Assembly (NCBI GenBank): GCA_001776935.1
Contig: MFDN01000014.1
Span: forward strand, 65,464-129,463
Direction of reading: 5' to 3'
DNA length: 64,000 bases
Origin: Candidatus Daviesbacteria bacterium RIFCSPLOWO2_01_FULL_39_23
GTDB taxonomy: Bacteria; Patescibacteriota; Microgenomatia; Daviesbacterales; UBA10151
How positions within the stretch are numbered: the first letter of the stretch is position 1; each line of letters opens with the position of its first letter. Below, piece by piece: positions 310 through 58,030 of the stretch. Made by a program: the position numbers and the translations under genes. Under the pieces are notes generated by a model. The model saw only the letters and a list, made by a program, of their open reading frames with translations. It was not told where the DNA came from and did no database searches.

Positions 310-909
310 TTATAAAATGTGATTTTCAAGTATCTTAACTATTTTGTCAACTGTTTCTTTCAATTTACCCGGTATATTTTCTATTACAAAGTCATAATTA
401 TCTTGATACTGTTCCCAAAACAGCTTGTCTTCCTGCATTCTGTGATTTATCTCTGCTTGGCTTATTCCGCGCTTCTTTAGTCTTTCCAGTACAACCTCAT
501 CGCTTACCGTTAAGTAAATAACCACGATCCTTTTTAATAAATCATCAGCCCTGCTTTGATCAAAAGAGTCTTTAATAAATTCCCGAACCTTACCGGCGCG
601 GGACGGATCTATCCTCCAAATTAAATCATGTCCCAAATTATTCGCAATCTGACATTTTTGGGTGCCGTATAAGTTCCCTCCATATTCCACATGCTCAATA
701 AAATCGCCTTCAGTAATTTTTTGTTTAAATTTGTCTTCTGATAAAAAATCGTAGTCTATACCGTTTGTTTCAGAGTTTCTGGGAGGTCTTGAAGTTGTGG
801 TAAGGATTTTTTTTAAATTGGGAAATTTTTGCTGCAGCTTTGATGCAACCGTATCTTTTCCCGAAGTGGTTTTTCCCGTGAGAACAATTAGTGATTTAGC
901 AGATTTCAT
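310..909 (-). CDS. gmk: Guanylate kinase
   Basis: P-loop GKTTSGKDT near N-terminus; TTTSRPPR...E.NG.DY.F. guanylate-kinase signature; 199 aa typical size. Confidence 0.85.
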   Translation of the reverse strand: MKSAKSLIVLTGKTTSGKDTVASKLQQKFPNLKKILTTTSRPPRNSETNGIDYDFLSEDKFKQKITEGDFIEHVEYGGNLYGTQKCQIANNLGHDLIWRIDPSRAGKVREFIKDSFDQSRADDLLKRIVVIYLTVSDEVVLERLKKRGISQAEINHRMQEDKLFWEQYQDNYDFVIENIPGKLKETVDKIVKILENHIL

Positions 910-912
910 CTC

Positions 913-1320
913 CTAATTATTGTCTATCGTGGTTAATCTTTCAAGTGAGAAATCCTTATAAATAATCCTTCGGTGTTCTTTAGGCAAAGTTAAACCGTGT
1001 ATGATGCCGCCCAAAAGTATGCCTTTGGTTATCATAAAATCCAATATGCCTACCGAAAGAAAAAAAGAAAGTACTAAAATCACTGAAAAAGAAAACCAAT
1101 GATGCAGGTGAAACACCCTGCCAAACAGCTTAAAACGGATCACAGGAAAAACCTGCAATCTTTTAGTTTTTATATTCGGAAGTTTTTTTCTAATACGGGA
1201 TGTCGGGTGGGTGGTGACCCTAAAAGTTAAATACCCGAGCGCTGTCGCCGGGATAATAGATAAGTATTCCATAAATGAAAAGCCTGAATTCATTGTATTA
1301 GACCCAGCCATAAAAAGCAA
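913..1320 (-). CDS. Hypothetical membrane protein
   Basis: 135-aa ORF with several hydrophobic helices; no recognisable motif. Confidence 0.35.
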   Translation of the reverse strand: MLFMAGSNTMNSGFSFMEYLSIIPATALGYLTFRVTTHPTSRIRKKLPNIKTKRLQVFPVIRFKLFGRVFHLHHWFSFSVILVLSFFLSVGILDFMITKGILLGGIIHGLTLPKEHRRIIYKDFSLERLTTIDNN

Positions 1321-1377
1321 ATCTGTCCACTAATTATTTAAGATTGGTATATTCACAAAACAGCCTAGAATGATATA

Positions 1378-1593
1378 ATGGAGGCCATGGATCTAACCAC
1401 TATTTTGCTTATTATTTTGGGAGTGGAATTTTTTATAATAGCAGTTTGCACCCTCATTATTACCTACCTTTTAGTGAGGACCTTAAAAACCGTTGCCAAT
1501 TTTACAAATTCCTTAGGAAAAATGAGAGCGCTCTTGACTGTTCCCGCTTTAGTATTGGCATTACTTAGTAAAATAATTAAAAAAAGGGGGTGA
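1378..1593 (+). CDS. Small hypothetical membrane protein
   Basis: 71-aa ORF with two hydrophobic segments immediately upstream of the YtxH-like gene. Confidence 0.3.
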   Translation: MEAMDLTTILLIILGVEFFIIAVCTLIITYLLVRTLKTVANFTNSLGKMRALLTVPALVLALLSKIIKKRG

Positions 1594-1598
1594 AAATT

Positions 1599-6094: not shown

Positions 6095-7678
6095 ATGGCT
6101 GACAATAAATGGGGTAAAAGAATTATCTATCAAATCTACCCGCGGAGTTTTAAAGACAGCAACGGAGACGGAATAGGCGACTTAAACGGAATAGCTGATA
6201 AATTGGACTACTTAAAAGACTTAGGTGTTGATGCAATATGGCTTTCTCCTGTTTACCGGTCGCCAATGCGTGACTTCGGCTATGATATCTCAGATTATTA
6301 TGACATTGATCCAATATTCGGAAGCCTTTCTGACTTTGATAATTTAATAAAAAAAACACACAGCAGGGACATGAAAGTGCTTATGGATTTTGTTCCCAAT
6401 CACACTTCTTCCGAACATCCATGGTTTATAGAGTCAAGCTCTTCTAAAAATAATCCCAAAAGAGACTGGTATATCTGGAAATCTCCCAAAAAAGAGGGGA
6501 TTGTACCCAACAATTGGCTGTCTCAATTTGGCGGACCTGCCTGGGAACTGGATAAAAAAACAGGCGAATATTATTTGCATACTTTTGATGTAAGCCAGCC
6601 TGACCTGAATTGGAGAAATCCGCAGGTCGTTGAGGAAATATTAAATGTCATGCGGTATTGGATAAAAAGGGGCGTAGATGGGTTCCGGGTAGACGTTGCA
6701 TACTACCTTTTTAAGGACCCCTTTTTTCGGGACGAACCGCATAATCCTGTATTTGCTGAACATCATACGCATTATGACAGTCTATTGCATATTTACACCA
6801 TTGCGCTGCCTGAAACTCTGAATATGCTTAAAAAGCTTAATGCCATTGTAAACGAATTTGATGATAAGTTTATGATCTGCGAGATCTATACTTTTCTTCA
6901 TGAAATAATCAATCTTTACAGGATAGTAGACCATCAAAGCTTTGCTCCTTTTAATTTTTCATTTATTTCTCTTCCGTGGAATGCAACAGTTCAAAAAGAA
7001 TTTATTGATGAATTTGATGAATTGGTAGGCCATAATTATTTCCCCACATATGTTCTTGGTAATCACGATCAGCCAAGAGTGGCTACAAAACTGGGAGAAG
7101 GTTCTGCGCGGACAGCTGCGCTGCTTCAGCTTACGCTCCGGGGGATCCCGTTTATTTATTATGGAGAAGAGCTGGGAATGAAGAATGTAGAAATTCCAGA
7201 AGAGGAAGCAAAGGATCCGATGGCCGTGAATATGAAGGGTTTCAATCTCGGACGCGATCCTGAGCGTACACCCATGCAATGGGATGGATCCAGGTTCGGC
7301 GGCTTTTCAAACACAGAACCCTGGCTTCCTTTAGAGAAGGAATTTCAGGAAAGAAATGTAGCATCCGAAGTAAAAGATAAAAAATCCTTTTTGAACTTGT
7401 ATAAGTCCGTTATCAATCTTAGGAAAACCAGGAAAAGTTTGGCAGGAGGTAGGCTTATTCCTTTAGACTTCAAAAATCCTAATGTGCTGGGATTTCTTAG
7501 GCAGGAAGCGGATGAGGAAACTTTTATACTGGCTAATTTTTCAGAAGAGGAACAAGAAGTTGAATTGCCCGAAGGTAAATGGAAAACCATACTGTCTACA
7601 AAAATGGATGTAGAAAACAGAAAAGAAAATAGTCTCCTTCGTTTGCGTCCCGCTGAAGGAATAATACTTTGCAACTAA
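6095..7678 (+). CDS. GH13 alpha-glucosidase / oligo-1,6-glucosidase-like (alpha-amylase family)
   Basis: YQIYPRSFKDSNGDGIGDLNG...GVDAIWLSP, catalytic region GVDGFRVDVA, NHTS, YGEELGM; 527 aa. Confidence 0.85.
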   Translation: MADNKWGKRIIYQIYPRSFKDSNGDGIGDLNGIADKLDYLKDLGVDAIWLSPVYRSPMRDFGYDISDYYDIDPIFGSLSDFDNLIKKTHSRDMKVLMDFVPNHTSSEHPWFIESSSSKNNPKRDWYIWKSPKKEGIVPNNWLSQFGGPAWELDKKTGEYYLHTFDVSQPDLNWRNPQVVEEILNVMRYWIKRGVDGFRVDVAYYLFKDPFFRDEPHNPVFAEHHTHYDSLLHIYTIALPETLNMLKKLNAIVNEFDDKFMICEIYTFLHEIINLYRIVDHQSFAPFNFSFISLPWNATVQKEFIDEFDELVGHNYFPTYVLGNHDQPRVATKLGEGSARTAALLQLTLRGIPFIYYGEELGMKNVEIPEEEAKDPMAVNMKGFNLGRDPERTPMQWDGSRFGGFSNTEPWLPLEKEFQERNVASEVKDKKSFLNLYKSVINLRKTRKSLAGGRLIPLDFKNPNVLGFLRQEADEETFILANFSEEEQEVELPEGKWKTILSTKMDVENRKENSLLRLRPAEGIILCN

Positions 7679-7688
7679 GTTAAATACT

Positions 7689-8687
7689 TTAAATAGTCTG
7701 CAATTGTTTACTGGCTTGGATCAGTTCATCTAGAGTTTTAGTTTTCATAAGCTTTACCCTGCTATCCGATGATCTTTCAAAATTGTTTACGTAACATTTG
7801 ACAAATTTTTTCATAAGTTCAAAGTGCTTCCTGCCTTCATACGTTTTTTTAAAAAGCTCCAAATGTTTTACAAGTAAGCGTATTCTTTGTCCTGATGCTC
7901 TATTTTGAACATCAATATCCTCATTAAAAAGCCAAACATTTTCAAAAATTCCCTGTCCGATCATAACTCCATCAATCCCATACCTTTCACATTTCTCCCG
8001 GGCTTCTTTAAGGCTTTTTACATCCCCGTTTCCTATAACTAAGGCTTTGGATTTAAACTTATTTTTAATCTTCACAGCCTTGCTAACTTCTTCCCAATGA
8101 GCTGGAACCTTCGACATCTCAGGAACTATCCTAAGATGCAGAGTCAGGGCGGAAATTTGTGTCTGCAAAAGATGAGTAACCCAATTTTCAATATCAATCC
8201 TGTCAAAACCTATTCTTGTTTTAACGCTTACGGGCAGACCCTCGGCGCCGCTTATTGTGGCTTCTATAATTTCTTTTGCAAGCTTTGGGTTTTTAATTAA
8301 AGCTGAACCTGCTCCTTTTTTAATAACGTTCTTATCTGGGCATCCCATATTAATATCAATCCCGTCAAATCCCAGCTTTTTGATAAGTCCTGCTGCTTTG
8401 TAAAAATTTTCCGGGTTAGACCCCCAAATTTGCGCAACAATCGGTTGTTCTTTTTTTGTAAATTTTAAAGTTTCTAAAACTTTTTCATATCCTTTGGAAA
8501 ACAAGCCGTCAACCGGTATAAACTCCGTAAAAAATACATCCGGTTTTCCCCGCCCGCCGCGCAAGCCAGCTTGCTGGCGTTGCGGGCAGGCCACAGACAC
8601 TAAAATTTGCCGAAAAACTGTATCCGTAACCCCGTCCATCGGAGCCAGTATAAAAATGGGTTTTTTTAACTTTTCCCAAAAATGCAT
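7689..8687 (-). CDS. dus: tRNA-dihydrouridine synthase (Dus family) carrying an in-frame GC-rich insertion
   Basis: ILAPMDGVTD...FR N-terminal motif and GFDGIDINMGCP FMN/catalytic Cys motif. The peptide ACPQRQQAGLRGGRGKPD near the N-terminus is encoded by a GC-rich palindrome. Confidence 0.8.
   Translation of the reverse strand: MHFWEKLKKPIFILAPMDGVTDTVFRQILVSVACPQRQQAGLRGGRGKPDVFFTEFIPVDGLFSKGYEKVLETLKFTKKEQPIVAQIWGSNPENFYKAAGLIKKLGFDGIDINMGCPDKNVIKKGAGSALIKNPKLAKEIIEATISGAEGLPVSVKTRIGFDRIDIENWVTHLLQTQISALTLHLRIVPEMSKVPAHWEEVSKAVKIKNKFKSKALVIGNGDVKSLKEAREKCERYGIDGVMIGQGIFENVWLFNEDIDVQNRASGQRIRLLVKHLELFKKTYEGRKHFELMKKFVKCYVNNFERSSDSRVKLMKTKTLDELIQASKQLQTI
8547..8598. repeat. GC-rich palindromic element inserted in-frame in dus
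   Basis: ccccgcccgccgcgcaagccagcttgctggcgttgcgggcaggcc: near-perfect hairpin (cgcaagccagc / gctggcgttgcg) in an otherwise AT-rich gene. Confidence 0.5.
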
Positions 8688-8725
8688 AGTTGTAAATTAT
8701 ATACCAATGGATAAAATAATAATTC

Positions 8726-9022
8726 ATGGCTGCAAAATACCAAGTCCTTTTTCAACAGATGTTAAAAGAAAACGAAACCCTTTTGTCCGGCTTTAAATTG
8801 CTTCATGATAAATACGAAACTGATCCAAATACATATCAGGATCAATATAATAAAGTAGGGGAGGCGGTTATGAAGCTTATCCAAGAATATGAAAACATGC
8901 TAACCTCAAGCACTGAAAAGTCAGGGTACGGTAAATATGCCGCTAATTTGTCTGATAAATTTCGCTCTGCTGTAAAAACAATATTTCCGAAAATAGACTT
9001 TATCGGAGTGCAGAGAGTCTGA
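8726..9022 (+). CDS. Hypothetical protein
   Basis: 98-aa ORF, helical/charged composition, no motif recognised. Confidence 0.35.
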   Translation: MAAKYQVLFQQMLKENETLLSGFKLLHDKYETDPNTYQDQYNKVGEAVMKLIQEYENMLTSSTEKSGYGKYAANLSDKFRSAVKTIFPKIDFIGVQRV

Positions 9023-9209
9023 ATTAGGAGTGGGTGGGCAGATTATAATCCTGAGCAAAGTCGAAGGACTTACTTCGTACCCAACTAAAAGAGTTCAGGC
9101 ACCCTTTTACGATTCCTGACTATTCCAAAAAGTATAAATTAGCTATTAATAAATGCTAAGCAGATTAAGACTTTAATAAATCAAAAGCTTGGTCTACAAT
9201 TAGGCTAAA

Positions 9210-9992
9210 ATGCAAAAGACACAGGATAGTATAAGTTACTTCTTTGTTGATGAATCAGGCGATCCAACTTTTTATGATAGACACGGAAATTTAGTTGTAG
9301 GAACAGAAGGTATATCTAAGATACTAATATTGGGATTTATCCATACAAAAGATCCTAAATCCATTCGTCAGGCATTACAAAAGCTTCAGCAAGAAATTAC
9401 CCAGGATAAATACCTGGAAGGTATTCCCTCGCTGCAGAAAACCTTAGTTGCCTTTCACGCCAAAGATGATAGTCCAGAGATTAGAGAAAAAGTATTTAAA
9501 ACTATAGTAGATTTAACTTTTACCGCAGAGCTTTTTGTGGCAAGAAAAATTCAAAATATCTTTAATGCTAGACATCATAGAAATGAAAATGAATTTTACG
9601 ATGATTTAATAAGCAAATTATTTGAGAATAAACTGCATTTAGCAAAACATAATGAAATATTCTTTGCTGTAAGAGGAAATAAAACTCGTCAAATTCCGTT
9701 AGAACAAGCAATACAAAGAGCTATTAGCACATTTGAGAGTAAGTGGAAGAAGAAGATTGATTCAATTGTAAAAGTTAATCCCCATAGCCCTTCTGGGGAA
9801 CCATGCCTTCAAGTTATAGATTATGTTAATTGGGCGGTTCAAAGAGCTTTTATAAAACAAGATATGAGATTTTATAAATTTATAGAAGAGAAAATTAAAT
9901 ATCTGGTTGATATTTATGATAATGATAAATACCCCAAGAATTTTTATACCTCAAGAAACAAATTTGATGTATCAAAAATAAGCCCCCTGTAA
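9210..9992 (+). CDS. DUF3800-family protein
   Basis: N-terminal YFFVDESGDP (the DUF3800 hallmark hhhDESG), C-terminal LQVIDYVNWAVQRAF resembling the conserved Q..D motif of that family. Confidence 0.5.
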   Translation: MQKTQDSISYFFVDESGDPTFYDRHGNLVVGTEGISKILILGFIHTKDPKSIRQALQKLQQEITQDKYLEGIPSLQKTLVAFHAKDDSPEIREKVFKTIVDLTFTAELFVARKIQNIFNARHHRNENEFYDDLISKLFENKLHLAKHNEIFFAVRGNKTRQIPLEQAIQRAISTFESKWKKKIDSIVKVNPHSPSGEPCLQVIDYVNWAVQRAFIKQDMRFYKFIEEKIKYLVDIYDNDKYPKNFYTSRNKFDVSKISPL

Positions 9993-10136
9993 ACTAGATG
10001 GGTGTAACCCATGCAAGGCATGAAGCCTACTTTTATTTACAGAGAGCTTACTCTATATCCTTACTATAATAACCAGAAAAGTGAAAGTCAATAACAATAA
10101 AAGGTAAGAAAACTGTAAGAACGATATACTTTTTCT

Positions 10137-10673
10137 ATGAAATTAATATTGATTGATGGAGGGCCAGCTTCAGGGAAAAATACATTAGGAAAATTACTGG
10201 TAGATCAATTTAATAAAAATGGAGAAAAAGCAATTCTTTTAGATCTAGATTCATATGTTGAGGAGTTCAATCCTAAATGGATTTGGGAGAGTAAAGAACA
10301 AGAGGAAAAAGATCATTTAAATGCCAGAGTAAATTTTGTAAAAGATATAAATAAGTATTTACAAGAAGATCTTACTGTCGTTGCTATCGGGGAAAGATTT
10401 CTAACACATTCAGATGTTTCTCGTTACACAGAAAAATTAGGAATAAATTATCCAATATACCTTTTTCATCTAACAGTTCCAAGGGCTTTACGTCAACAAA
10501 GATTAGATCAAAGAGGACCCCATTCGCTTATTAATCTAGATAAGGATCAAAAAGATCGCGACGCTATTAAAGATTGGCCAGGATATGTTTATGAGAATAT
10601 TAATTCTCCAGAAGAAGACGCTAAGAATTTATATGATTTAATCCGGAGTAACAAAGGATTAATAAATCTATGA
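10137..10673 (+). CDS. P-loop nucleotide/nucleoside kinase-like protein (AAA_33-like)
   Basis: Walker A ILIDGGPASGKNTLGK at residues 4-19, DLD Walker-B-like, 178 aa small kinase fold. Confidence 0.55.
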   Translation: MKLILIDGGPASGKNTLGKLLVDQFNKNGEKAILLDLDSYVEEFNPKWIWESKEQEEKDHLNARVNFVKDINKYLQEDLTVVAIGERFLTHSDVSRYTEKLGINYPIYLFHLTVPRALRQQRLDQRGPHSLINLDKDQKDRDAIKDWPGYVYENINSPEEDAKNLYDLIRSNKGLINL

Positions 10674-10797
10674 AGTATTTCTTGGGTACGAACTTCCCCT
10701 CAGTGGTAGTTAAAATTGAGGCTAAAAATGCTTGGGTCGAAATCTTAATTTCGACACCTCAAAACAATTTTCTAGGTTGAAGATTTATGAAAATTAT

Positions 10798-10885
10798 TTT
10801 TCGGGGTGGCTGACGGGTAATGCTCCCGCTTCCTTCCGCTCCACAGGCGGACGTTCTACTTTTGAACTACAGCCACCATAAAGAA
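10798..10885 (-). ncRNA. ffs: Candidate SRP RNA (4.5S/ffs-like) or other structured small RNA
   Basis: Minus-strand transcript contains CGGAAGGAAGC, identical to the E. coli 4.5S domain-IV core (GGUCCGGAAGGAAGCAGCC, from memory). It is enclosed by an 8-bp terminal helix GGUGGCUG/CAGCCACC with internal hairpins. Intergenic; strand could be wrong. Confidence 0.3.
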
Positions 10886-11034
10886 CCATTTTATCAGATT
10901 CTTGAATTTAAAGCACTAAAAAAGCCCCTTGCGGGACTTTCTTAGAGAACTTGTATATCTTGCGATTTACAAGTCTTTTTATAATACTCTATATATTTAA
11001 ATTGGTCAATTAGGACAAAGTAGCTCAGAATATA

Positions 11035-12798
11035 TCAATTAGAAAACGGCAGTAGTTTCCAAAGCTCCTTTGGGTTTAGCAAAACAGAGAATATATCAGG
11101 TTTTAAGCTTCCAAAATTCAGTGTATTCTCACCTGCCGATACTGTCTGGGTAATCTTTGAGGGTTTATAAAAAGGCTTTTCCAAAGAAAATTCAAAAGAA
11201 TAATCCGGCAACAAATACCTTGCCTCAATTGCATCCGACATCCCCCTTCCATCCAGTTTTATATTTTGTATATTACTGCCTGTTGCGCCTTTGATAGTTA
11301 GAATATAGTTTCCGGCAAAATTATTTTTCCACCCCAAAGAGCTTTTAATTTTTAAAATCACCGGCGACTTCACTTCGGTTTCCGATTCCAGAGGTTTTGA
11401 ATCAAATTGCCTGTTTCCTTCAAACAAGTTAAGGGTGGTTTTATAAACATTATTCTGGCGGGCGCTCATCTCAAGCGGCGCCTTTAAGTTCAGTCTGAAA
11501 GTATATTCCTGACCGGGTTCAACTTTTATGTTTTTAGGCAGCTCAAGGTTTGTAATCCCAAAGTTTTGTCCTCCCTCGGTGGCAACCAGCCTGACTTGCT
11601 CCCTGTCGTTCCATATTGACTGGCCTATGTTTTTAAATGTTAAGTCAATCATATAGGCCTCGCCTGCAACAATAGAAGTGAATATTTCCCCCTTTAGAAG
11701 TTCTGCTTTTACTTCCTGTACAGGTCTTCCTGAAGCTTTTGGAAAATCCTGCAAAACCCGGTAGGCAGGGAAATATGGGTCATCAATAGATTGAGTTTCG
11801 CTTTTGGCAAGCTTTGTTTCATGCTTTTTAAAAGAAAACTGGTCAAAAGGAGGTTCCTGATAATTTAGTAAAAACGGTGTGACAGCTACAATTTGCGGAT
11901 TATTCCAGCATTGGGTAAATGCTTTTTGGTAATAGGAGGCAACTTTTTCTACTGAAGGATAAGACTTGTTTGGCTTTAAGCCTTCCGCATGTTTCCAGCC
12001 TGTTTCCGTAATAAAAATCGGCAGTTTCTTTTTCGCCCCAAAAGATTCCAATATTTCCTGTTCCCATTCCCATGTCCAGACAGTTCCTTTACCGTAATCA
12101 TCAGGCGAGCCGGTAAAGTTAGGATTAGGATAGGAATGAGATACCCAGCCGTCCAGCCTGTTTAATATTCCGGGAACTGCCTGCTCCATTTGTTTTAAAA
12201 AGCTTACTTCATCCATGTACAGGGGAGGCTGGTAGGGAGTAGAAGCATCAAGTCCTGCATTGAGTACAAAAAAGTCTCCATTTTTATTTTTTAGCGCTGT
12301 AATAGTCTTATCTAATACTTTTGCGTAAGATGTGGCGTCAACTTTATTTCCCCATTCTGCTGCATGATTTGGTTCATTGTAAATAATAATGTAGCGGTTT
12401 TTAGTTGGCCAATTAAGTTTATCTAAAAAGTCTGCCCAGGCAATTTCTTCGCCTTCGTAAGGCAGCTTCCAGTGGCCGTTCTCAGGCTGGGTTGCCAGTC
12501 TCACCAAAGGAATTAAATGCCTTCGCCGTAAGTCGTTAAAAAATTCCTGCCATTTATTATGATTTCTGTCTTTGCTTTCAACTAAAACCGTTATATATCC
12601 CCAGTCGCCGTTGGTGTTTACAAGATCTGCGGCAGGGGAGGATTCCTGAGGAGTTGCCTGGATAATGTGTATCCCAAAACGATTATTGGGAACAAGCAGG
12701 GGATCAACGATAGCAAAGGTGGTTGAAATGTAAAATGTAAAATGTACAATGTAAAATGTAAAAAACAGGAAAACTAACTTAATTGTAAATTTCCTCAT
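11035..12798 (-). CDS. Secreted clan GH-A (GH5-like) glycoside hydrolase with C-terminal beta-sandwich-like domain
   Basis: N-terminal signal/TM; NEP acid/base motif (IIIYNEPNHAAEWG) and nucleophile motif IFITETGW about 110 aa later; C-terminal ~200 aa Ig/CARDB-like. Confidence 0.6.
   Translation of the reverse strand: MRKFTIKLVFLFFTFYIVHFTFYISTTFAIVDPLLVPNNRFGIHIIQATPQESSPAADLVNTNGDWGYITVLVESKDRNHNKWQEFFNDLRRRHLIPLVRLATQPENGHWKLPYEGEEIAWADFLDKLNWPTKNRYIIIYNEPNHAAEWGNKVDATSYAKVLDKTITALKNKNGDFFVLNAGLDASTPYQPPLYMDEVSFLKQMEQAVPGILNRLDGWVSHSYPNPNFTGSPDDYGKGTVWTWEWEQEILESFGAKKKLPIFITETGWKHAEGLKPNKSYPSVEKVASYYQKAFTQCWNNPQIVAVTPFLLNYQEPPFDQFSFKKHETKLAKSETQSIDDPYFPAYRVLQDFPKASGRPVQEVKAELLKGEIFTSIVAGEAYMIDLTFKNIGQSIWNDREQVRLVATEGGQNFGITNLELPKNIKVEPGQEYTFRLNLKAPLEMSARQNNVYKTTLNLFEGNRQFDSKPLESETEVKSPVILKIKSSLGWKNNFAGNYILTIKGATGSNIQNIKLDGRGMSDAIEARYLLPDYSFEFSLEKPFYKPSKITQTVSAGENTLNFGSLKPDIFSVLLNPKELWKLLPFSN
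12727..12763. repeat. Tandem heptamer-like repeat (atgtaaa)n inside GH signal-peptide codons
   Basis: aatgtaaaatgtaaaatgtacaatgtaaaatgtaaaa; encodes FTFYIVHFTFYI on the minus strand. Confidence 0.6.
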
Positions 12799-13179
12799 AA
12801 ATTACCTCTTGACGTTCGGGTTTTCTTTGCCTATATTAATTAACGTGATACAAATCCTTGAATCTGTTAATGTGTGGGTGTTTTTTAAAGGTAATCTCAT
12901 ACAGCCTTATTCCTTTTTCTGGCATGGCAGGCAAATTAAAATAGATAAGATTAATTTAATCCATACCTCAAAAAACGGGATTTGGGTATTCTACCATTTT
13001 TCCGTAAGTTGCGGAGGAAATTTTTACAGACTCAAATTTGATACGAATAAATTAAGTTGGATGCTGGAAGCAGTGGAGGCAGAAGAGGAATAGCTATCAG
13101 TCATCAGTCATCAGTCTTCAGCTTTCAGACTAAAATCTGACGACTGACAGCGAAGCGATACTGACAGCTGACGACTACT

Positions 13180-14595
13180 ATGAAAGTTATTTTACATATC
13201 GACTTTAACTCATACTTTGCAACAGTTGAACAGCAGGCAAACCCCAGACTTCGGGGTAAGCCGGTTGGTGTTACAGGAGGAGACCGCCTGAAAAGAACAG
13301 TTTTGGGTGCAGCTTCAGTTGAGGCAAAAAGATTTGGTGTTAAAACAGGCATGCAGATTTGGGAAGCCCGAAAACTTTGTCCGCAAATAATTTTGGTGCC
13401 GGGGGACTCTGATAAGTATTTAGAGACTACAAAGCGTTTTTTAGGCATCCTGAAGGACTACACGCCATATCTGGAAGTCTTTTCAATAGACGAATGCTTT
13501 TTGGAATTGTATAAAACTCGGGGTCCTGCCAGCCAGGTTTCCCGTCGTGCATCCTCGCTCGCCTTCGCTCGCTGCGGCTACGCGCCGGGACCCCCTCCTG
13601 GCTGTCACCCCTCATTTTGTGATGCAGAGCAGATTGCTTTATATATTAAACAAAGGATCAAAGCTGAAATAGGCGAGTGGATCACCTGCTCTATTGGTAT
13701 TTCCTACAATAAATTAATGGCCAAGCTGGCCGGCTCTTTACAAAAACCTGATGGTTTGGTGGTTATTGCCAATCAGGAAGAAACCATGAAAGTTTTAGAC
13801 CAAATTGCCTTGGATGAAATTTGCGGCATTGGTCCGCGGATCAAAAAAAGGCTGAATAACCTGGGCATTTTTGATTTTAAGACTTTAAGAAAAGCCCCGC
13901 TTGAGGCTTTGCTGGCCTCCTTTAAATCCTATGGGCAAACTCTTTACAATATGGCGCGGGGCATTGACCATTCCCCCCTGATTCCCTTTTATGAAAAAGG
14001 AGAAGTTAAAAGTATTGGTCACCGCCACACCATTGATCATGATACTAACCAGGAAGCAGAAATCAAACAAATTTTGCTGAAACTGTCTGAAATGGTAGCA
14101 GCAAGGCTTAGGGCTAAAAATTTAGTCGGTAAAACTATCCACCTTTGGTACCGCGAAGCATTTAATTTAGCTTCCCACTCGTCAAGTGGGAATGTATTTT
14201 TTGGAGATGGAATGCAAAATACTATCCACTATACTCATGATGGATTGGAAATTTTTCAGGCAGCCTGGAAAATCTTTCATCTGATTTGGCCTGCCCGCAA
14301 CGCTACCGCTTGTGAGACAGGCGGGCCTGCCCGCAACGCTACCGCTTGCAAGGCGGGCGGGAACAAGAACAAAATCCGGATGGTTGGCCTTTCTGTCTCC
14401 AGCTTAAAACCTGTGCTGCCGCAAAATTTAAGCCTGCTGCCGGAAACTGCAAAACAGGAAAAAATTATTAAAACCCTGGATAAAGTTAATGATAAATTCG
14501 GTGAATTCACCCTGCAAAGGGGGATACTTTTGGATTCTACCGTCATCCGACGTAAACCAAATCCCTTTCTTTCCGAGCGGAGGTTTAAACTTTAA
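13180..14595 (+). CDS. dinB: DNA polymerase IV (Y-family, DinB) with two in-frame GC-rich insertions
   Basis: ILHIDFNSYFATVEQ, SIDECFLEL, CSIGISYNKLMAKLAG, ICGIGP Y-family motifs. Extra peptides SQVSRRASSLAFARCGYAPGPPPGCHPS and PARNATACETGGPARNATACKAGG are absent from canonical DinB. Confidence 0.85.
   Translation: MKVILHIDFNSYFATVEQQANPRLRGKPVGVTGGDRLKRTVLGAASVEAKRFGVKTGMQIWEARKLCPQIILVPGDSDKYLETTKRFLGILKDYTPYLEVFSIDECFLELYKTRGPASQVSRRASSLAFARCGYAPGPPPGCHPSFCDAEQIALYIKQRIKAEIGEWITCSIGISYNKLMAKLAGSLQKPDGLVVIANQEETMKVLDQIALDEICGIGPRIKKRLNNLGIFDFKTLRKAPLEALLASFKSYGQTLYNMARGIDHSPLIPFYEKGEVKSIGHRHTIDHDTNQEAEIKQILLKLSEMVAARLRAKNLVGKTIHLWYREAFNLASHSSSGNVFFGDGMQNTIHYTHDGLEIFQAAWKIFHLIWPARNATACETGGPARNATACKAGGNKNKIRMVGLSVSSLKPVLPQNLSLLPETAKQEKIIKTLDKVNDKFGEFTLQRGILLDSTVIRRKPNPFLSERRFKL
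13520..13613. repeat. GC-rich palindromic element inserted in-frame in dinB (palm/thumb linker)
   Basis: cagccagg...cctggctg inverted ends; encodes ~27 extra residues between SIDE motif and thumb. Confidence 0.5.
14290..14361. repeat. Tandem duplicated 36-nt GC-rich palindromic unit inside dinB 3' region
   Basis: cctgcccgcaacgctaccgcttg(tgagac/caaggc)aggcggg x2; each unit has gcccgc...gcgggc inverted ends. Confidence 0.6.
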
Positions 14596-14599
14596 CTTC

Positions 14600-14676
14600 C
14601 TTCCGTCATCCTGAGATTCTTCACTTCACTTCGCCAAGTCTAACCTGGCTTCGCTCCGTTCAGAATGACAATGAGG
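14600..14676. repeat. MITE-like element (gtcatcc...gaatgac family), intergenic
   Basis: ccgtcatcctgag...ttcacttcacttcg...cagaatgacaatgagg; terminal inverted repeats and ttcacttc core shared with element at 39449-39529. Confidence 0.45.
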
Positions 14677-14696
14677 AATTATGCTATCATTAAATC

Positions 14697-15659
14697 ATGA
14701 TAAATATTGTGACCGGAGGGGCCGGATTTTTGGGATCTCACCTCTCTGACAAATTAATCGAAAGAGGGGATCAGGTCATTTGTATAGACAATCTTTTAAC
14801 AGGCAATATAGAAAATATTGCCCACCTGCAAAACAGCCCTGATTTTCAATTTGTACAGGCTGATGCTTTGGATGAGTTTCCCCAGGATTTGGATTTTGAC
14901 TGCCTTTACCACCTGGCTTCCCCTGCTTCGCCCAATAAAAACAACCCGAAAAGCTATATGGCCCTGCCTTTTGAAACTATGCAGGTGAATTCCTTCGGAA
15001 CCTGGAATTTATGTAATGAGGCCTTAAACCGTGGAGCCAAATTTTTATTTGCATCTACTTCTGAAATTTACGGAGACCCGCTGGAACACCCGCAAAAAGA
15101 AACCTACAGAGGCAATGTTTCAACAATTGGTCCCAGAGCGGTCTACGATGAAGCAAAAAGGTTTGGTGAGACAATAGTCTCTGCGTTTATACGCTATAAC
15201 AAGCTGGACGGTCGGGCAGTCCGCATTTTTAATACTTACGGGCCGCGGATGTCCCAGGACGGCAGGGTAGTTATTGAATTTGTAATGGCAGCTTTACAAA
15301 ATAAGCCCTTGCCTGTTTTTGGAGATGGTACCCAAACCCGTTCTTTTTGTTACGTATCAGATTTGGTTGACGGAATTATAGCGGCAATGGATAAAGGTGA
15401 AAAAGGGGAAATTTTCAATCTTGGAAATCCCGATGAATTTACGGTGTTGCAGCTTGCTGAAATTGTTAAAAAACTTACCGGCACCACATCTGAAATAGCA
15501 ATTGCGGAAAAATTGCCGGAAGATGAGCCCTTAAGGCGCTGTCCGGATATCTCAAAAGCCAAAGCAGCTTTGGGCTGGGAGCCAAAAGTAGAGCTGGAAG
15601 AAGGGCTAAGCAAGCTTATTGTTCACCTAAAAAACGCACAGTCACCAAAAACCCCATGA
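14697..15659 (+). CDS. NAD-dependent epimerase/dehydratase (UDP-glucuronate decarboxylase/UXS-like)
   Basis: VTGGAGFLGSHL Rossmann motif, ICIDNLLTG (UXS-like NFFTG region), catalytic YxxxK (YDEAK). Confidence 0.75.
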   Translation: MINIVTGGAGFLGSHLSDKLIERGDQVICIDNLLTGNIENIAHLQNSPDFQFVQADALDEFPQDLDFDCLYHLASPASPNKNNPKSYMALPFETMQVNSFGTWNLCNEALNRGAKFLFASTSEIYGDPLEHPQKETYRGNVSTIGPRAVYDEAKRFGETIVSAFIRYNKLDGRAVRIFNTYGPRMSQDGRVVIEFVMAALQNKPLPVFGDGTQTRSFCYVSDLVDGIIAAMDKGEKGEIFNLGNPDEFTVLQLAEIVKKLTGTTSEIAIAEKLPEDEPLRRCPDISKAKAALGWEPKVELEEGLSKLIVHLKNAQSPKTP

Positions 15660-15707: not shown

Positions 15708-15780
15708 GCGCCTGTAGCTCAGTGGATAGAGCAGGACGGTTCTAACGTCAAGGCCGGGGGTTCGAATCCCTCCAGGCGTA
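15708..15780 (+). tRNA. tRNA-Arg (anticodon TCT)
   Basis: Cloverleaf: acceptor GCGCCTG/CAGGCGT (G1-U72 wobble), D-arm GCTC/GAGC, anticodon stem GGACG/CGTCA with loop GTTCTAA, T-arm GGGGG-TTCGAAT-CCCTC; 73 nt, CCA not encoded. Confidence 0.75.
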
Positions 15781-25641: not shown

Positions 25642-25713
25642 AGCGGGATAGGGGAATTGAACCCCTTACATACTGCTTGGAAAGCAGTCGTTCTACCGGT
25701 GAACTAATCCCGC
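25642..25713 (-). tRNA. tRNA-Gly (anticodon TCC)
   Basis: Minus strand: GCGGGAT-TA-GTTC-ACCGGTA-GAAC-G-ACTGC-TTTCCAA-GCAGT-ATGTA-AGGGG-TTCAATT-CCCCT-ATCCCGC-T; U33, A37, U73 discriminator. Confidence 0.8.
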
Positions 25714-30226: not shown

Positions 30227-30298
30227 TCGGGGTGGAGAGAATTGAACTCTCTACATCTGCGTCCCAAACGCAGCGGTCTACCGATGACCTACACCCCG
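30227..30298 (-). tRNA. tRNA-Pro (anticodon TGG)
   Basis: Minus strand: CGGGGTG-TA-GGTC-ATCGGTA-GACC-G-CTGCG-TTTGGGA-CGCAG-ATGTA-GAGAG-TTCAATT-CTCTC-CACCCCG-A. Confidence 0.85.
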
Positions 30299-32046: not shown

Positions 32047-32129
32047 TGCCCAGGGTGGGAGTCGAACCCACACGACCTTGCGGCCATTGGATTTTAAGTC
32101 CAACGTGTATGCCATTCCACCACCTGGGC
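32047..32129 (-). tRNA. tRNA-Leu (anticodon TAA)
   Basis: Minus strand 83 nt with long variable arm: GCCCAGG...TTGGA-CTTAAAA-TCCAA-TGGCCGCAAGGTCGT-GTGGG-TTCGACT-CCCAC-CCTGGGC-A. Confidence 0.85.
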
Positions 32130-53734: not shown

Positions 53735-53765
53735 TTTTAACTTTCCTATGCTATACTAGGCATTA

Positions 53766-56555
53766 GTGAACATCACTAAATTTTTTTCCTTGACATTCTT
53801 AGGTCTGGCTTTTGTTACTTTTATTTTCTTCTCAAGCATTATTTCCTTGATTACCGACTGGTGGTGGTACCAAGAAGTAGGATTTACCGAAATCTTTATA
53901 AAATCCCTAAGCACTAAAATCATTGTAGGTTTAGTAGCAGGAATTACCGCTGCCATTTTTCTTCTTACGAACTTATCTCTTGCCATCCGTTCGAAAATAC
54001 CCTGGATGGCAGCCATTCCTGAAGTTATCATCGGTGCCAATCAACCAATTAGCTTAAATAGTAGAATAATTGGGAAGCTCGGCATTATTCTAAGCTGTAT
54101 CATTGCCATCTTTATTGGTCTTATCGCCGCAAGCAGTTGGCATGACGTCTTAAAGTTTATATCAGGTGTACCGTTTGGGCAAAAAGACCCGATATTTGCT
54201 GCTGATGTATCTTTTTACGTGTTTTCCCTGCCTGTTTTTTCTTTGGGCCTTGGTCTTATAAAAACCGTTATCCTGATATCGCTTATCGGTTGCGGCGTAA
54301 TTTACATTTTACGAGGCAGCCTCAATTTATCAAGCCTTTTTCCTAAAATTGACCTCTCTAAATTGACCGGAAAACCTGAAAGTTTGATTATCAGACCTGC
54401 GAGAGATTCGAGTACTGATCCTAAAGCCAGACTGCATATCGGCATTCTACTATCTCTCTTTTTGGCAACAATTGCCACAAGCACATATCTTTCTCTCTAT
54501 AATTTGCTTACCAGTCAGAGCGGTCCGGTGTTTGGTGCGGCCTTCACCGATGCCAATGTTATGATACCAATTCTTCGTGTATCTGTTTTTGTTTACGGCC
54601 TGGCTGTGATTTTAGCGCTATTTTACGGGATTAGCGGGAGAATCGCGCCTCTTTTTGTAGCAATTTTTTTGACTGTAATCGTCGGGTTTACCTCTTTAAT
54701 TATCCCTTCTATTTTCCAGAAACTGGTGGTTGCGCCCAATGAGCTTACCAAAGAAACACCGTTTATCAAACACAACATTGAATTAACCCGCAAGGCTTAT
54801 GATTTGGATAAGGTAGAAGAGCGGGAAATAGAAGCCAGTAAACCGGTTACAGCTTCCGATATTGCAACTAATAATCTCACCATCAAAAATGTCAGACTGT
54901 GGGACAAGGCGCCGCTTTTGTCTACTTTTTCGCAAATTCAGGAGATTAGAACTTACTACGAGTTTGCCTCTGTTGATAATGACCGTTATACAATTAACGA
55001 AGAATTGCGCCAGATTATGCTTTCTCCCAGAGAGCTGGATTCGGATAGCCTGCCCAACAAAAACTGGATTAATGAACGGTTAACCTTTACTCATGGCTAT
55101 GGGGTAACCGGCGGACCGGTAAATCAGGTTACTCCTGAAGGATTGCCTGTACTATTCGTCAAAGACTTACCTCCAAAATCCGAAGTCAAAGAACTTGAAG
55201 TCACAAGGCCGGAAGTTTACTACGGGGAAATCCCTAACGAGTATGTAATTGTCAAAACCAAATCTAAGGAGTTTGATTATCCCAAAGGCGAAGAAAATGT
55301 CTATACCACATATGACGGGAAAGGCGGAGTAGAAATCAACTCTCCTTTGCGCCGGTTCCTGTATGCTTTGCGATTTGGCTCCCTCAAATTATTTTTATCA
55401 AGCGATGTTACAGCTGAGAGCCGTATCCTTTATTACCGCAATATAAAGGAGAGAGTTGCTAAAATTGCTCCGTTTCTTACACTTGACCGCGACCCGTATC
55501 TGGTTATCGCTGAAGGCAAACTGTATTGGATCCTTGATGCCTATACATCAACCGACCGTTATCCCTATTCCCAACAGCTGCCATTAAATGGAGGTAAGGT
55601 AAATTATATTAGAAATTCCGTTAAAGCAATGGTAGATGCTTACGACGGAACAGTCAAGCTTTATCAAAGCGATGCTGATGATCCGATTATCAAAACCTAT
55701 GCCAAAATTTTTCCCAAAACTTTTCTTCCGCTTTCTGAAATGCCCAAAAGCTTGACTCCCCACCTCCGTTATCCCGAAGATATTTTTACTTTGCAAACTG
55801 CAATCTACACCACCTACCATATGGATGACCCGCAGATTTTCTACAACAAAGAGGACCAGTGGGAAATCCCTGCTATTGCTTCAGGCGGCGAGACGCAAGC
55901 CGGCGGCAGAGTATCGGCAATGGATCCGCGGCACATGATTATGAAGCTCCCGGGTGAGAAAAAAGAGGAGTATATTCTTATGCTGCCCTTTACCCCGCGG
56001 GCAAAAGACAATCTGTCTGCCTGGATGGTAGCCAGAAATGACGGAGAACAGTATGGTAAACTGGTTGTCTACCGTTTCCCCAAAGATAAACTGGTGTTTG
56101 GTCCCAAACAGGTTATAGGCAGAATTAATCAGGACGCAGAAGTCAGTCGGCAGATCTCTTTATGGGATCAGCGCGGGTCGCAGGTTATCCAGGGGCCGCT
56201 GCTGGTTATTCCTATTGAGGAGTCTTTAGTATATGTCCGTCCGCTCTATCTTAAGGCAGAGGCAGGGAAAATTCCGGAACTCAAACGGGTCATCGTCGCA
56301 TACGAGAATAAAATTGCCATGGAAGAGACACTGGAAGCAGGCCTGGCTAAAATCTTCGGCACTGCCGAAGGCCAAACCAAACCATCCGGAGAATCACCGG
56401 TTAGAGCAGCGCCTGCCGACCCGACCAAAGAAAACCTTCTTCAGCAGGCAAACCAGGCATATCAGTCTGCCATCAATGCGCAACGGGAGGGAGACTGGGG
56501 CAGGTACGGAGAGGAGATAAAAAAGCTGGGTGAAATATTAAGTAAACTACGCTGA
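53766..56555 (+). CDS. UPF0182-family large membrane protein
   Basis: N-terminal 7-TM block beginning LITDWWWYQEVGFTEIF (UPF0182 hallmark WWxxE/Q-VG-Y/F) followed by ~650-aa extracytoplasmic domain; 929 aa. Confidence 0.7.
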   Translation: MNITKFFSLTFLGLAFVTFIFFSSIISLITDWWWYQEVGFTEIFIKSLSTKIIVGLVAGITAAIFLLTNLSLAIRSKIPWMAAIPEVIIGANQPISLNSRIIGKLGIILSCIIAIFIGLIAASSWHDVLKFISGVPFGQKDPIFAADVSFYVFSLPVFSLGLGLIKTVILISLIGCGVIYILRGSLNLSSLFPKIDLSKLTGKPESLIIRPARDSSTDPKARLHIGILLSLFLATIATSTYLSLYNLLTSQSGPVFGAAFTDANVMIPILRVSVFVYGLAVILALFYGISGRIAPLFVAIFLTVIVGFTSLIIPSIFQKLVVAPNELTKETPFIKHNIELTRKAYDLDKVEEREIEASKPVTASDIATNNLTIKNVRLWDKAPLLSTFSQIQEIRTYYEFASVDNDRYTINEELRQIMLSPRELDSDSLPNKNWINERLTFTHGYGVTGGPVNQVTPEGLPVLFVKDLPPKSEVKELEVTRPEVYYGEIPNEYVIVKTKSKEFDYPKGEENVYTTYDGKGGVEINSPLRRFLYALRFGSLKLFLSSDVTAESRILYYRNIKERVAKIAPFLTLDRDPYLVIAEGKLYWILDAYTSTDRYPYSQQLPLNGGKVNYIRNSVKAMVDAYDGTVKLYQSDADDPIIKTYAKIFPKTFLPLSEMPKSLTPHLRYPEDIFTLQTAIYTTYHMDDPQIFYNKEDQWEIPAIASGGETQAGGRVSAMDPRHMIMKLPGEKKEEYILMLPFTPRAKDNLSAWMVARNDGEQYGKLVVYRFPKDKLVFGPKQVIGRINQDAEVSRQISLWDQRGSQVIQGPLLVIPIEESLVYVRPLYLKAEAGKIPELKRVIVAYENKIAMEETLEAGLAKIFGTAEGQTKPSGESPVRAAPADPTKENLLQQANQAYQSAINAQREGDWGRYGEEIKKLGEILSKLR

Positions 56556-57959: not shown

Positions 57960-58030
57960 TTGCGGGACATGGATTCGAACCATGATAGATAGCTCCAAAG
58001 GCTATCGTCCTACCATTAGACGATCCCGCA
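57960..58030 (-). tRNA. tRNA-Gln (anticodon TTG)
   Basis: Minus strand: TGCGGGA-TC-GTCT-AATGGTA-GGAC-G-ATAGC-CTTTGGA-GCTAT-CTAT-CATGG-TTCGAAT-CCATG-TCCCGCA-A; U1-A72 as in bacterial tRNA-Gln. Confidence 0.8.

Follow-up and report, generated by a model that had tools for sequence, protein, structure and literature searches.

GC-rich hairpin repeats of two dispersed families are inserted in frame in a DNA polymerase IV gene of Candidatus Daviesbacteria

Introduction

In-frame colonization of genes by palindromic repeats is textbook knowledge for Rickettsia and has been noted for repetitive extragenic palindromic (REP) sequences in Proteobacteria. Here we describe two GC-rich hairpin elements, which we call E1 and E2, that interrupt dinB, the gene for the Y-family DNA polymerase IV, in Candidatus Daviesbacteria bacterium RIFCSPLOWO2_01_FULL_39_23, a member of the Patescibacteria or candidate phyla radiation (CPR). 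The stretch analyzed, hereafter the window, comprises 64,000 nucleotides of contig MFDN01000014.1 (positions 65,464 to 129,463), and all coordinates refer to it. The Rickettsia palindromic elements RPE-1 to RPE-10 are described as selfish palindromic repeats that lie in frame in unrelated housekeeping genes at fold-compatible positions and occur in both genic and intergenic DNA (Ogata et al. 2000; PMC10969869, PMC3733652). The same sources give a length of ~100-150 bp, a conserved peptide per family, a CGTC end and a host range of Rickettsia and relatives only (PMC10969869, PMC3733652).

Three other systems are pertinent. REP sequences and REPINs are 20-40-nt GC-rich imperfect palindromes that are mostly intergenic and occur as singletons, dimers or arrays (PMC3733652, PMC3116915, PMC2817692), although intragenic copies, especially those in genes for replication and repair, give rise to REP-decorated proteins (Di Nocera et al. 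2013, PMC3733652). Classical REPs are usually species- or genus-specific, accompany a REP-flanked gene for a REP-associated tyrosine transposase (RAYT) and carry a GTAG or CGTC tag cleaved by that enzyme, whose proposed HUH-tyrosine mechanism is not expected to leave a target-site duplication (PMC3733652, PMC3116915, PMC2817692). The GC clusters of yeast mitochondria (GC42) are ~40-bp GC-rich hairpins in an AT-rich genome, with stems more conserved than loops (Wu and Hao 2015, PMC4478555); they show presence/absence polymorphism and tandem and merged (nested) arrangements, and their mobilizing machinery is unknown (PMC4478555). [quoted passage not shown] They are 100-500 bp long, usually AT-rich and derived from insertion sequences, and have terminal inverted repeats and target-site duplications (PMC5896051, PMC10969869). 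Full-text searches of the literature gave us no description of such in-frame elements in CPR/Patescibacteria.

Results

Two hairpin elements within dinB

The window has a GC content of 38.5%, and two GC islands fall within dinB, at 13517-13621 (69% GC) and 14286-14368 (67% GC; features in Table 1). The first contains E1, which is built on the inverted repeats TGCCAGCCAGG/CCTGGCTGTCA (13527-37/13597-607) and GGGGTCC/GGACCCC and is read through in frame as residues 113-145 (TRGPASQVSRRASSLAFARCGYAPGPPPGCHPS), after the catalytic strand SIDECFLE and before the helix that follows it (site A). The second contains two E2 units in a loop of the little finger (site C). Each unit is bounded by the inverted repeat CCTGCCCGC/GCGGGCGGG, and together they form a tandem repeat at 14288-14361 with a period of 36 nt and 2.1 copies. 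The inverted- and tandem-repeat patterns were matched in 0 of 100 shuffles of the window. The two units are identical at 32 of 36 positions (89%), the differences being four transitions; unit 1 carries three private transitions, all in its 3' arm, and unit 2 differs from the cross-phylum consensus at three positions. Conceptual translation across the insert junctions gives ...IFHLIWPARNATAC..., ...ELYKTRGPASQVSR... and ...VSVACPQRQQAGLR....

Folding support for the dinB inserts is moderate. E1 reaches a fold z-score of -2.9 as RNA and -3.1 as minus-strand DNA; as RNA, E2 unit 2 scores -3.5 and unit 1 only -1.7, and the further E2 copy in dus (see below) scores -3.5. Rfam searches returned no family match over 7500-15500 (E<=1) or over 13490-13640 (E<=10), and only tRNAs across the whole window; neither element matched a curated RNA family, self-splicing introns included. 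Escherichia coli 4.5S RNA has CCCGCAACGCTAC in common with E2 and, when E1 is read in reverse complement, GCTGGCAGGxCCCC in common with E1; an origin from signal recognition particle/4.5S RNA was considered and dropped because Rfam gave no match on either strand even at E<=10.

Orthologues, empty sites and structure

In an alignment of 121 DinB sequences, site C measures three residues in 105, and site A has 4-11 residues in many of them, compared with 42 here; solved polymerase IV structures have 6-10 residues where this DinB has about 38. Relative to insert-free orthologues, E1 adds about 31-38 residues and the E2 pair exactly 24. Empty sites are also found at the DNA level (a slash marks the insertion point): site A reads GAA/GGCACA in locus L009, and site C reads ATT TGG/AAC in L007 and ATG TGG/TCT in L009. 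The insertion point of the window, TGG/E2/AAC, agrees both with these two empty sites and with the filled sites of L168, L169 and L170, and homologous E1 copies occupy the same dinB site in L007 and L008. In the structure model (AlphaFold), the predicted local distance difference test (pLDDT) drops below 50 at exactly 113-143 and 373-395, that is, at both inserts. The modeled coil 113-143 joins strand 105-110 to helix 144-163, and coil 373-395 joins helix 355-369 to strand 399-407, with conserved and confidently predicted elements on either side of both. In summary, E1 and E2 in dinB are true insertions, and we infer that both are exposed at the protein surface.

An initial annotation of this DNA, made from the letters alone, had described one single and one tandem GC-rich segment in an otherwise AT-rich dinB, with inverted-repeat ends and at positions that are short loops in canonical DinB, all of which the islands, shuffles, structures and orthologues bear out. 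Its estimate of ~27 and ~24 added residues is right for the second insert and too low for the first. The 36-nt tandem duplication that it called perfect is not, given the four transitions; and of its repeated peptide GPARNATAC, PARNATAC does occur twice, following W in the first repeat and G in the other. The checks that it proposed, namely orthologue alignment, folding, a search for the same units elsewhere and placement on a structure, turned out in favor of insertion, with weak folding of E2 unit 1 and, for the structure, a placement in low-confidence model coils between conserved secondary-structure elements.

Site A holds at least eight different repeat-peptide families across the 121 orthologues and is a remarkable insertion hotspot common to them. 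Several observations on other inserts may be placed here. An intergenic GC-rich palindrome at 2190-2260 of the window (GCGTCATCGCGAGATCGCCGCGGCGACCGTGGCGATCTC) gives a translation that matches the site-A insert of orthologue P0014 (..DCHGRLGDLAMT; tblastn E=0.001), so that this repeat family is intergenic here and in frame in dinB elsewhere. Further lineage-specific DinB inserts follow KDYS in P0030 and comprise DPDSIGV in P0062 and PASPAFGVASRGE in P0111 and P0017; P0026 has a PACRQAG insert at site C, and a third location, site B (residues ~326-341), varies from 5 to 33 residues among orthologues.

Conservation of the DNA and of the peptide

Compared with L007, dinB outside the inserts has a dN of 0.14, a saturated dS of ~3.3 and an omega of ~0.04, and is under strong purifying selection. 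The E1 segment of the same pair has a dN of 0.16, a dS of 0.25 and an omega of ~0.6. Nucleotide identity is 84% in E1 versus 74% in the rest of the gene, and amino-acid identity 73% versus 80%. In L008, a 10-nt internal difference shifts the frame of the right half of E1, and the DNA is still recognizable as E1. The dinB genes of L168 and L169 share 66.5% identity, and dS between them is saturated; their E2 copies match each other and the cross-phylum consensus at 36 of 36 positions and sit at exactly the nucleotide position used in the window, directly after ATT TGG or ATC TGG. E1 and E2 are dispersed DNA elements whose hairpin is conserved at the DNA level, and not protein motifs.

A second host gene

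A third E2 copy of the window lies in frame in dus, which encodes a tRNA-dihydrouridine synthase. Its orientation relative to the coding strand is the same as in dinB and its reading frame is different (ACPQRQQAGLRGGR versus PARNATAC). Of 25 Dus orthologues, 4 have the resulting 14-residue insert and the other 21 lack it. As a separate observation, orthologue P0228 carries a different short GC-type insert, GPACRQA, at another Dus loop; dus therefore has more than one colonized site among its orthologues.

Dispersal of E2

For E2 beyond the window, one genome per species (GTDB) was scanned with the pattern CCTGCCCGCAACGC-N8-30-GCGGGC, which yielded at least 120 loci. Matches in high-GC genomes had random spacers and are expected by chance, and E2 copies were counted in hosts with a flank GC of 0.30-0.56, where the 81 matches among those listed correspond to 72 distinct copies. 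These low-GC copies are stereotyped: they follow CCTGCCCGCAACGCTCTCGCTTGCGAGGCGGGCGGG (36 nt), a second 36-nt form (...TTCGCGTAGCGATGCGGGCGGG) or the 42-nt form seen in dus, and the 33-nt matched core of CCTGCCCGCAACGCTCTCGCTTGCGAGGCGGGCGGG recurs exactly in at least 21 copies. Lengths are most often a multiple of three, and half of the copies listed are 36 nt. All main variants have the same 9-10-bp outer stem and differing inner stems, with fold z-scores from -2.8 to -4.7.

Hosts comprise at least 13 named CPR lineages. E2 also occurs on a 3.6-Mb chromosome of Deltaproteobacteria (Desulfobacterota), on contigs of 450-835 kb from Gammaproteobacteria and on a 563-kb contig of Verrucomicrobiae; because copies sit on such large non-CPR contigs, the spread across phyla is no binning artefact. 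Five contigs of one Lentisphaerae metagenome-assembled genome carry E2 as well. Among the matches listed, 20 of 81 lie in long open frames and 61 (about 75%) outside long ORFs; a few of the 20, toward high GC, resemble chance matches. Among the convincing intragenic copies, at least four of the six possible frame/strand readings are represented, and 9 of 10 host ORFs tested are recognizable genes. Hosts include genes for UvrC, a Mur ligase, TsaD, a PD-(D/E)XK nuclease, glycosyltransferases, a PMT_2 protein and an LTD/PKD protein; a copy near the gene for ribosomal protein L1 (L160) was not counted as intragenic because the true start codon probably lies downstream of it. The idea that E2 belongs to a larger composite element was considered and rejected: within 120 nt on either side of 12 Desulfobacterota copies, only E2 and short local tandem repeats are conserved.

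Annotated PLSDB plasmids and GenBank phages contained no match to E2. Canonical forms were observed in three IMG/VR viral contigs (L163, L164, L167; flank GC 0.54-0.63), and such viral contigs may be vehicles for spread between phyla.

Dispersal of E1

A scan of metagenomes for the E1 termini yielded 31 loci with common ends (CTCGGGGTCCTGCCAGC...GCTGTCACCCCTCG), a mostly similar interior and lengths of 86-99 nt. Copies are intergenic or in frame within genes, in sense or antisense orientation. Host proteins include PolA, where E1 separates the exonuclease domain from the polymerase domain, a class A penicillin-binding protein (PBP) and a chorismate-binding enzyme, and the four ORFs tested are real genes. 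The consensus hairpin of 15 copies has 24 pairs. Its inner 12-pair helix is 97% paired and shows compensatory double changes at six pairs, which is equaled in 0 of 500 shuffles and by no register shift; the outer helices are near-invariant and give no covariation signal.

Boundaries, copy number and history

The boundaries of E2 coincide with those of its hairpin, (GG)CCTGCCCGC...GCGGGCGGG, the right end GCGGGCGGG being fixed and the flanks random except for G-rich positions -1/-2; E1 ends in CTCGGGGTCC...GTCACCCCTCG. Neither the dinB and dus sites nor the E2 flank logo showed a target-site duplication. One E2 copy is nested: in L170 (1001-2278, dinB orthologue P0068), the loop of the site-C E2 holds another E2-like hairpin of 36 nt, and the resulting 72-nt insert (PARNALARNASPIDASGSHSEAGG) folds as one longer hairpin (z -3.6). 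E1 can also decay, as in P0045, where site A reads TRGPASSVSPL, the two E1 ends joined by an internal deletion.

Locus L004 comes from a different sample; over 13.4 kb its only difference from the window is a missing 36-nt unit, exactly 14288-14323, and the one-unit dinB allele recurs in three further assemblies. Against the consensus, both units of the window have two derived bases in common (GCTACCGC versus GCTCTCGC), and they then differ by their four transitions. A fresh tandem duplication was rejected on these grounds, the strains being otherwise identical. For the same reasons, the simplest history would be an old tandem duplication, subsequent divergence of the units and, recently in L004, a deletion by way of their left halves, which are identical over 25 nt.

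In a neighbor-joining tree of DinB, E2 carriers occur in at least three places, with nearest neighbors that have no E2. The tree is star-like, and as a test of recurrent insertion against vertical descent it was not decisive. Together with the scattered carriers, the consensus-identical copies at one nucleotide position in separate lineages suggest repeated insertion at a preferred site or homogenization by gene conversion.

Host gene and neighborhood

The dinB product matches the Pfam families IMS (4.9e-40, 137 bits), IMS_HHH_1 (37 bits) and IMS_C (2.2e-15, 57 bits) and solved polymerase IV structures in PDB (best 6e-54). It has the palm and fingers, the helix-hairpin-helix thumb, the little finger and the catalytic Asp and Asp-Glu of a Y-family polymerase IV; the catalytic residues D8, D104 and E105 vary little or not at all in the alignment. 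Residues 8-10 (13201-13209) belong to the family motif HIDFNSYFA, in which the Asn at position 10 is nearly invariant in the alignment; many Y-family polymerases have a second Asp at the equivalent position. Named close homologues are Candidatus Daviesbacteria (Patescibacteria/CPR). The exact 471-residue protein is on record in 42 blocks, from NCBI (GCA_003516415.1, contig DPCX01000016.1), ENA and JGI groundwater assemblies, and dinB is therefore a real gene and no assembly artefact.

A DUF3800 gene (9210-9992) lies between dus and dinB. Upstream of dinB, at 13093-13176, an imperfect 25-nt inverted repeat of ATCAGTC heptamers forms another hairpin-type repeat beside the gene. Directly after the dinB stop codon, one frame of 14604-14680 reads PEILHFTS...LRSVQNDNEE and resembles, by eye only, the site-A inserts of P0050 and P0087 (EILRLTSFAQDDNF); a repeat search at seed 6 found no inverted repeat in this segment. 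Six tRNA genes (10805-10876, 15708-15780, 25642-25713, 30227-30298, 32047-32129, 57960-58030) are present in the window, two of which explain GC islands of the scan. Several GC-richer stretches (0.64-0.71) at 55867-56517, within an ORF at 53760-56552 (931 aa), are neither of the E1 nor of the E2 type.

Table 1. Positions of the two host genes and of the hairpin elements within them
Feature	Position	Strand	Basis or reading
dinB, Y-family DNA polymerase IV, 471 aa	13180..14595	+	Pfam, PDB matches
E1, ~92-nt GC-rich imperfect hairpin	13517..13614; core GGGGTCC...GTCACCCC 13520-13611	+	GC 70%, inverted repeats, fold
E2 unit 1, 36-nt hairpin unit, degraded	14290..14325	+	Read as PARNATACETGG, aa 371-382
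E2 unit 2, 36-nt hairpin unit CCTGCCCGCAACGCTACCGCTTGCAAGGCGGGCGGG	14326..14361	+	Read as PARNATACKAGG, aa 383-394
dus, tRNA-dihydrouridine synthase	7689..8687	-	Pfam Dus 7.1e-51
Third E2 copy, 42-nt form CCTGCCCGCAACGCCAGCAAGCTGGCTTGCGCGGCGGGCGGG, in frame in dus	8549..8590	-	GC-island scan

Discussion

We consider it probable (roughly 0.8) that E1 (~90 nt) and E2 (36 or 42 nt) represent two families of non-autonomous, GC-rich, hairpin-forming dispersed repeats that behave selfishly in the manner of REPs and are tolerated in frame. Such families would colonize the AT-rich genomes of Patescibacteria and of some other phyla. Since both elements are so GC-rich that stop codons are rare, and E2 mostly measures a multiple of three, a landing copy often lengthens a gene instead of breaking it. 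A landing in a coding region would often add 12-14 (E2) or ~30 (E1) residues, and selection would retain only copies that keep the frame and lie in loops or inter-domain linkers that tolerate them. In dinB, the inserts are most likely translated as disordered loops of a polymerase that would still be functional. Our best guess for the spread is a single-strand, hairpin-recognizing mechanism of the IS200/RAYT (HUH-tyrosine) kind or template switching at hairpins, because target-site duplications are missing, element and hairpin boundaries coincide, and one copy is nested in a hairpin loop.

Several points weigh against this interpretation. The 64-kb window holds only three E2 units and one E1 copy, and no gene linked to E1 or E2 that could mobilize them was found in a motif screen of 4035 ORFs (window plus compared loci). 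No clean case of whole-element presence/absence polymorphism between close strains was seen, and deletion between direct repeats, not transposition, is the best account of the one-unit and two-unit alleles. The G-rich -1/-2 flank makes a duplication of 1-2 nt formally possible at some E2 sites. The DinB tree is poorly resolved, and an ancient insertion followed by many precise losses could therefore also account for the distribution. The structure model, with a mean pLDDT of only 62.6, is of modest quality, and we infer translation of the inserts from their open frames and the strong purifying selection on the host.

The sole match of the transposase screen was rejected as a linked enzyme: it is a Y1_Tnp gene in L074 (Saccharibacteria) that is flanked by a different hairpin and has no tie to E2. 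This IS200-like gene (899-1597, minus strand; Pfam 26.3 bits) lies between direct copies of ACATCGAAGTCGGACTTCGACGCAAG at 909-934 and 1609-1634. It apparently interrupts a prepilin-peptidase-like gene, the N-terminal coding part of which occurs in duplicate, on either side of the insertion.

One rival is that these segments are ancestral, lineage-specific GC-rich loops of the Daviesbacteria DinB and no insertions at all. It could draw on the presence of E1 at the same site in orthologues of 66-73% protein identity and of E2 at the same site in at least seven orthologues. Against it, most orthologues lack the segments and have empty orthologous sites, the same DNA units recur in unrelated genes, intergenic DNA, other frames, orientations and phyla, the synonymous divergence of the element is more than 10-fold below that of the host gene, and a GC content of ~70% stands against 38.5% in the window; we regard this rival as highly improbable. 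An error of assembly or sequencing (chimeric reads, collapsed or expanded repeats) deserves next to no weight. Although errors come easily in short GC-rich repeats and the genome is metagenome-assembled, independent NCBI, ENA and JGI assemblies agree on the exact protein, the one-unit allele was found in more than one assembly, and orthologues from unrelated projects have elements at the same sites. Removal or skipping of the inserts as tiny introns, by RNA excision or translational bypass, so that the mature protein would lack them, has a precedent in yeast mitochondria, where GC-rich elements are bypassed during translation, and would suit stable GC hairpins in an AT-rich mRNA. A length of 36-92 nt, however, is well below anything that a group I or II intron could have, and Rfam returned no family even at E<=10. 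Intragenic copies keep the frame open (by construction), and exactly 36 nt in half of the E2 copies fits read-through; the E1 copies in dinB stay in frame even after internal indels, and the junction of E2 when read through would give ...IWPARNATAC.... Removal thus strikes us as very unlikely.

More credit, if still little, goes to the idea that the hairpins are kept for a role in the host, as mRNA stabilizers, as pause sites for translation between folding units, or as recombination or slippage hotspots that tune dinB. The conservation of the DNA with a relaxed peptide, the compensatory changes that preserve the E1 stem and the variation in unit number between identical strains are in line with it. 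The inserts also tend to separate folding units, as between the exonuclease and polymerase domains of PolA and the domains of UvrC, and functions at the RNA level have been proposed for REPs (PMC3733652). The occurrence of the same element in numerous unrelated genes, in either orientation and also between genes, argues against a role specific to one gene. Most orthologues also manage without the element, copies decay by internal deletion (P0045) and by point changes (unit 1 of the window), and conservation of the stem is equally expected if mobility needs the hairpin. On balance we think a host role improbable and prefer selfish dispersed repeats.

Compared with RPEs as described above, E1 and E2 are alike in lying in frame in unrelated ORFs at fold-compatible sites (dinB, dus, UvrC, TsaD, Mur ligase, PolA, PBP). 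Against the ~100-150 bp of RPEs, E2 has 36 or 42 nt, and E1, with 86-99 nt, is just below the range. RPEs keep one frame per family, whereas E2 reads PARNA.. in dinB and ACPQR.. in dus and uses several other readings, and E1 occurs sense and antisense. Both lack the CGTC end and have hosts in Patescibacteria and several other phyla, which by these descriptions sets them apart from RPEs; E2, moreover, is GC-rich in an AT-rich genome and has no GTAG end either. The likeness to Rickettsia palindromic elements drawn in the initial annotation therefore stands as a functional one (in frame, at loop sites) and fails for length, fixed frame, host range and terminal tag. E2 resembles REPs in being a GC-rich imperfect palindrome of 36-42 nt with an outer stem of 9-10 bp, while E1 is longer. 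Unlike REPs, neither element has GTAG or CGTC at its termini (one E2 variant has a GTAG, but only within its loop). Copies of E2 from different phyla are almost the same, while classical REPs are usually lineage-specific, and the screen of 4035 ORFs gave no linked RAYT. With MITEs, E1 and E2 share non-autonomy and in-frame positions in host ORFs; in contrast to MITEs they are hairpins over their whole length, have ~70% GC, and show neither a target-site duplication nor a surrounding conserved element. The nearest analogue in size, composition and behavior is GC42, which differs in being mitochondrial, mostly intergenic and targeted to an AG dinucleotide, with no sequence relationship. In summary, E1 and E2 are neither RPEs, classical tagged REPs nor MITEs.

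A more far-reaching proposal, which we offer tentatively and hold to be less likely true than false, is that E2 is an active, ultra-short 36-nt element, near-unchanged across CPR, Desulfobacterota, Gammaproteobacteria and the Planctomycetes-Verrucomicrobia-Chlamydiae group, that re-enters one position in a homing-like manner through a machinery that leaves no target duplication and uses none of the known REP tags. E2, E1 and six or more further families seen at one DinB loop might then jointly constitute a major unrecognized source of the extra segments typical of CPR proteins.

The finding extends beyond the two dinB segments to a second host gene, two dispersed families and an insertion hotspot common to orthologues, and the one-unit and two-unit alleles in otherwise identical strains are a natural marker of very recent change. 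If the phenomenon is general, it would point to an uncharacterized hairpin-mobilizing activity and would caution those who annotate genes or predict structures against taking such DNA parasites for functional motifs. It would also explain part of the so far unexplained insertions and length variation of CPR proteins.

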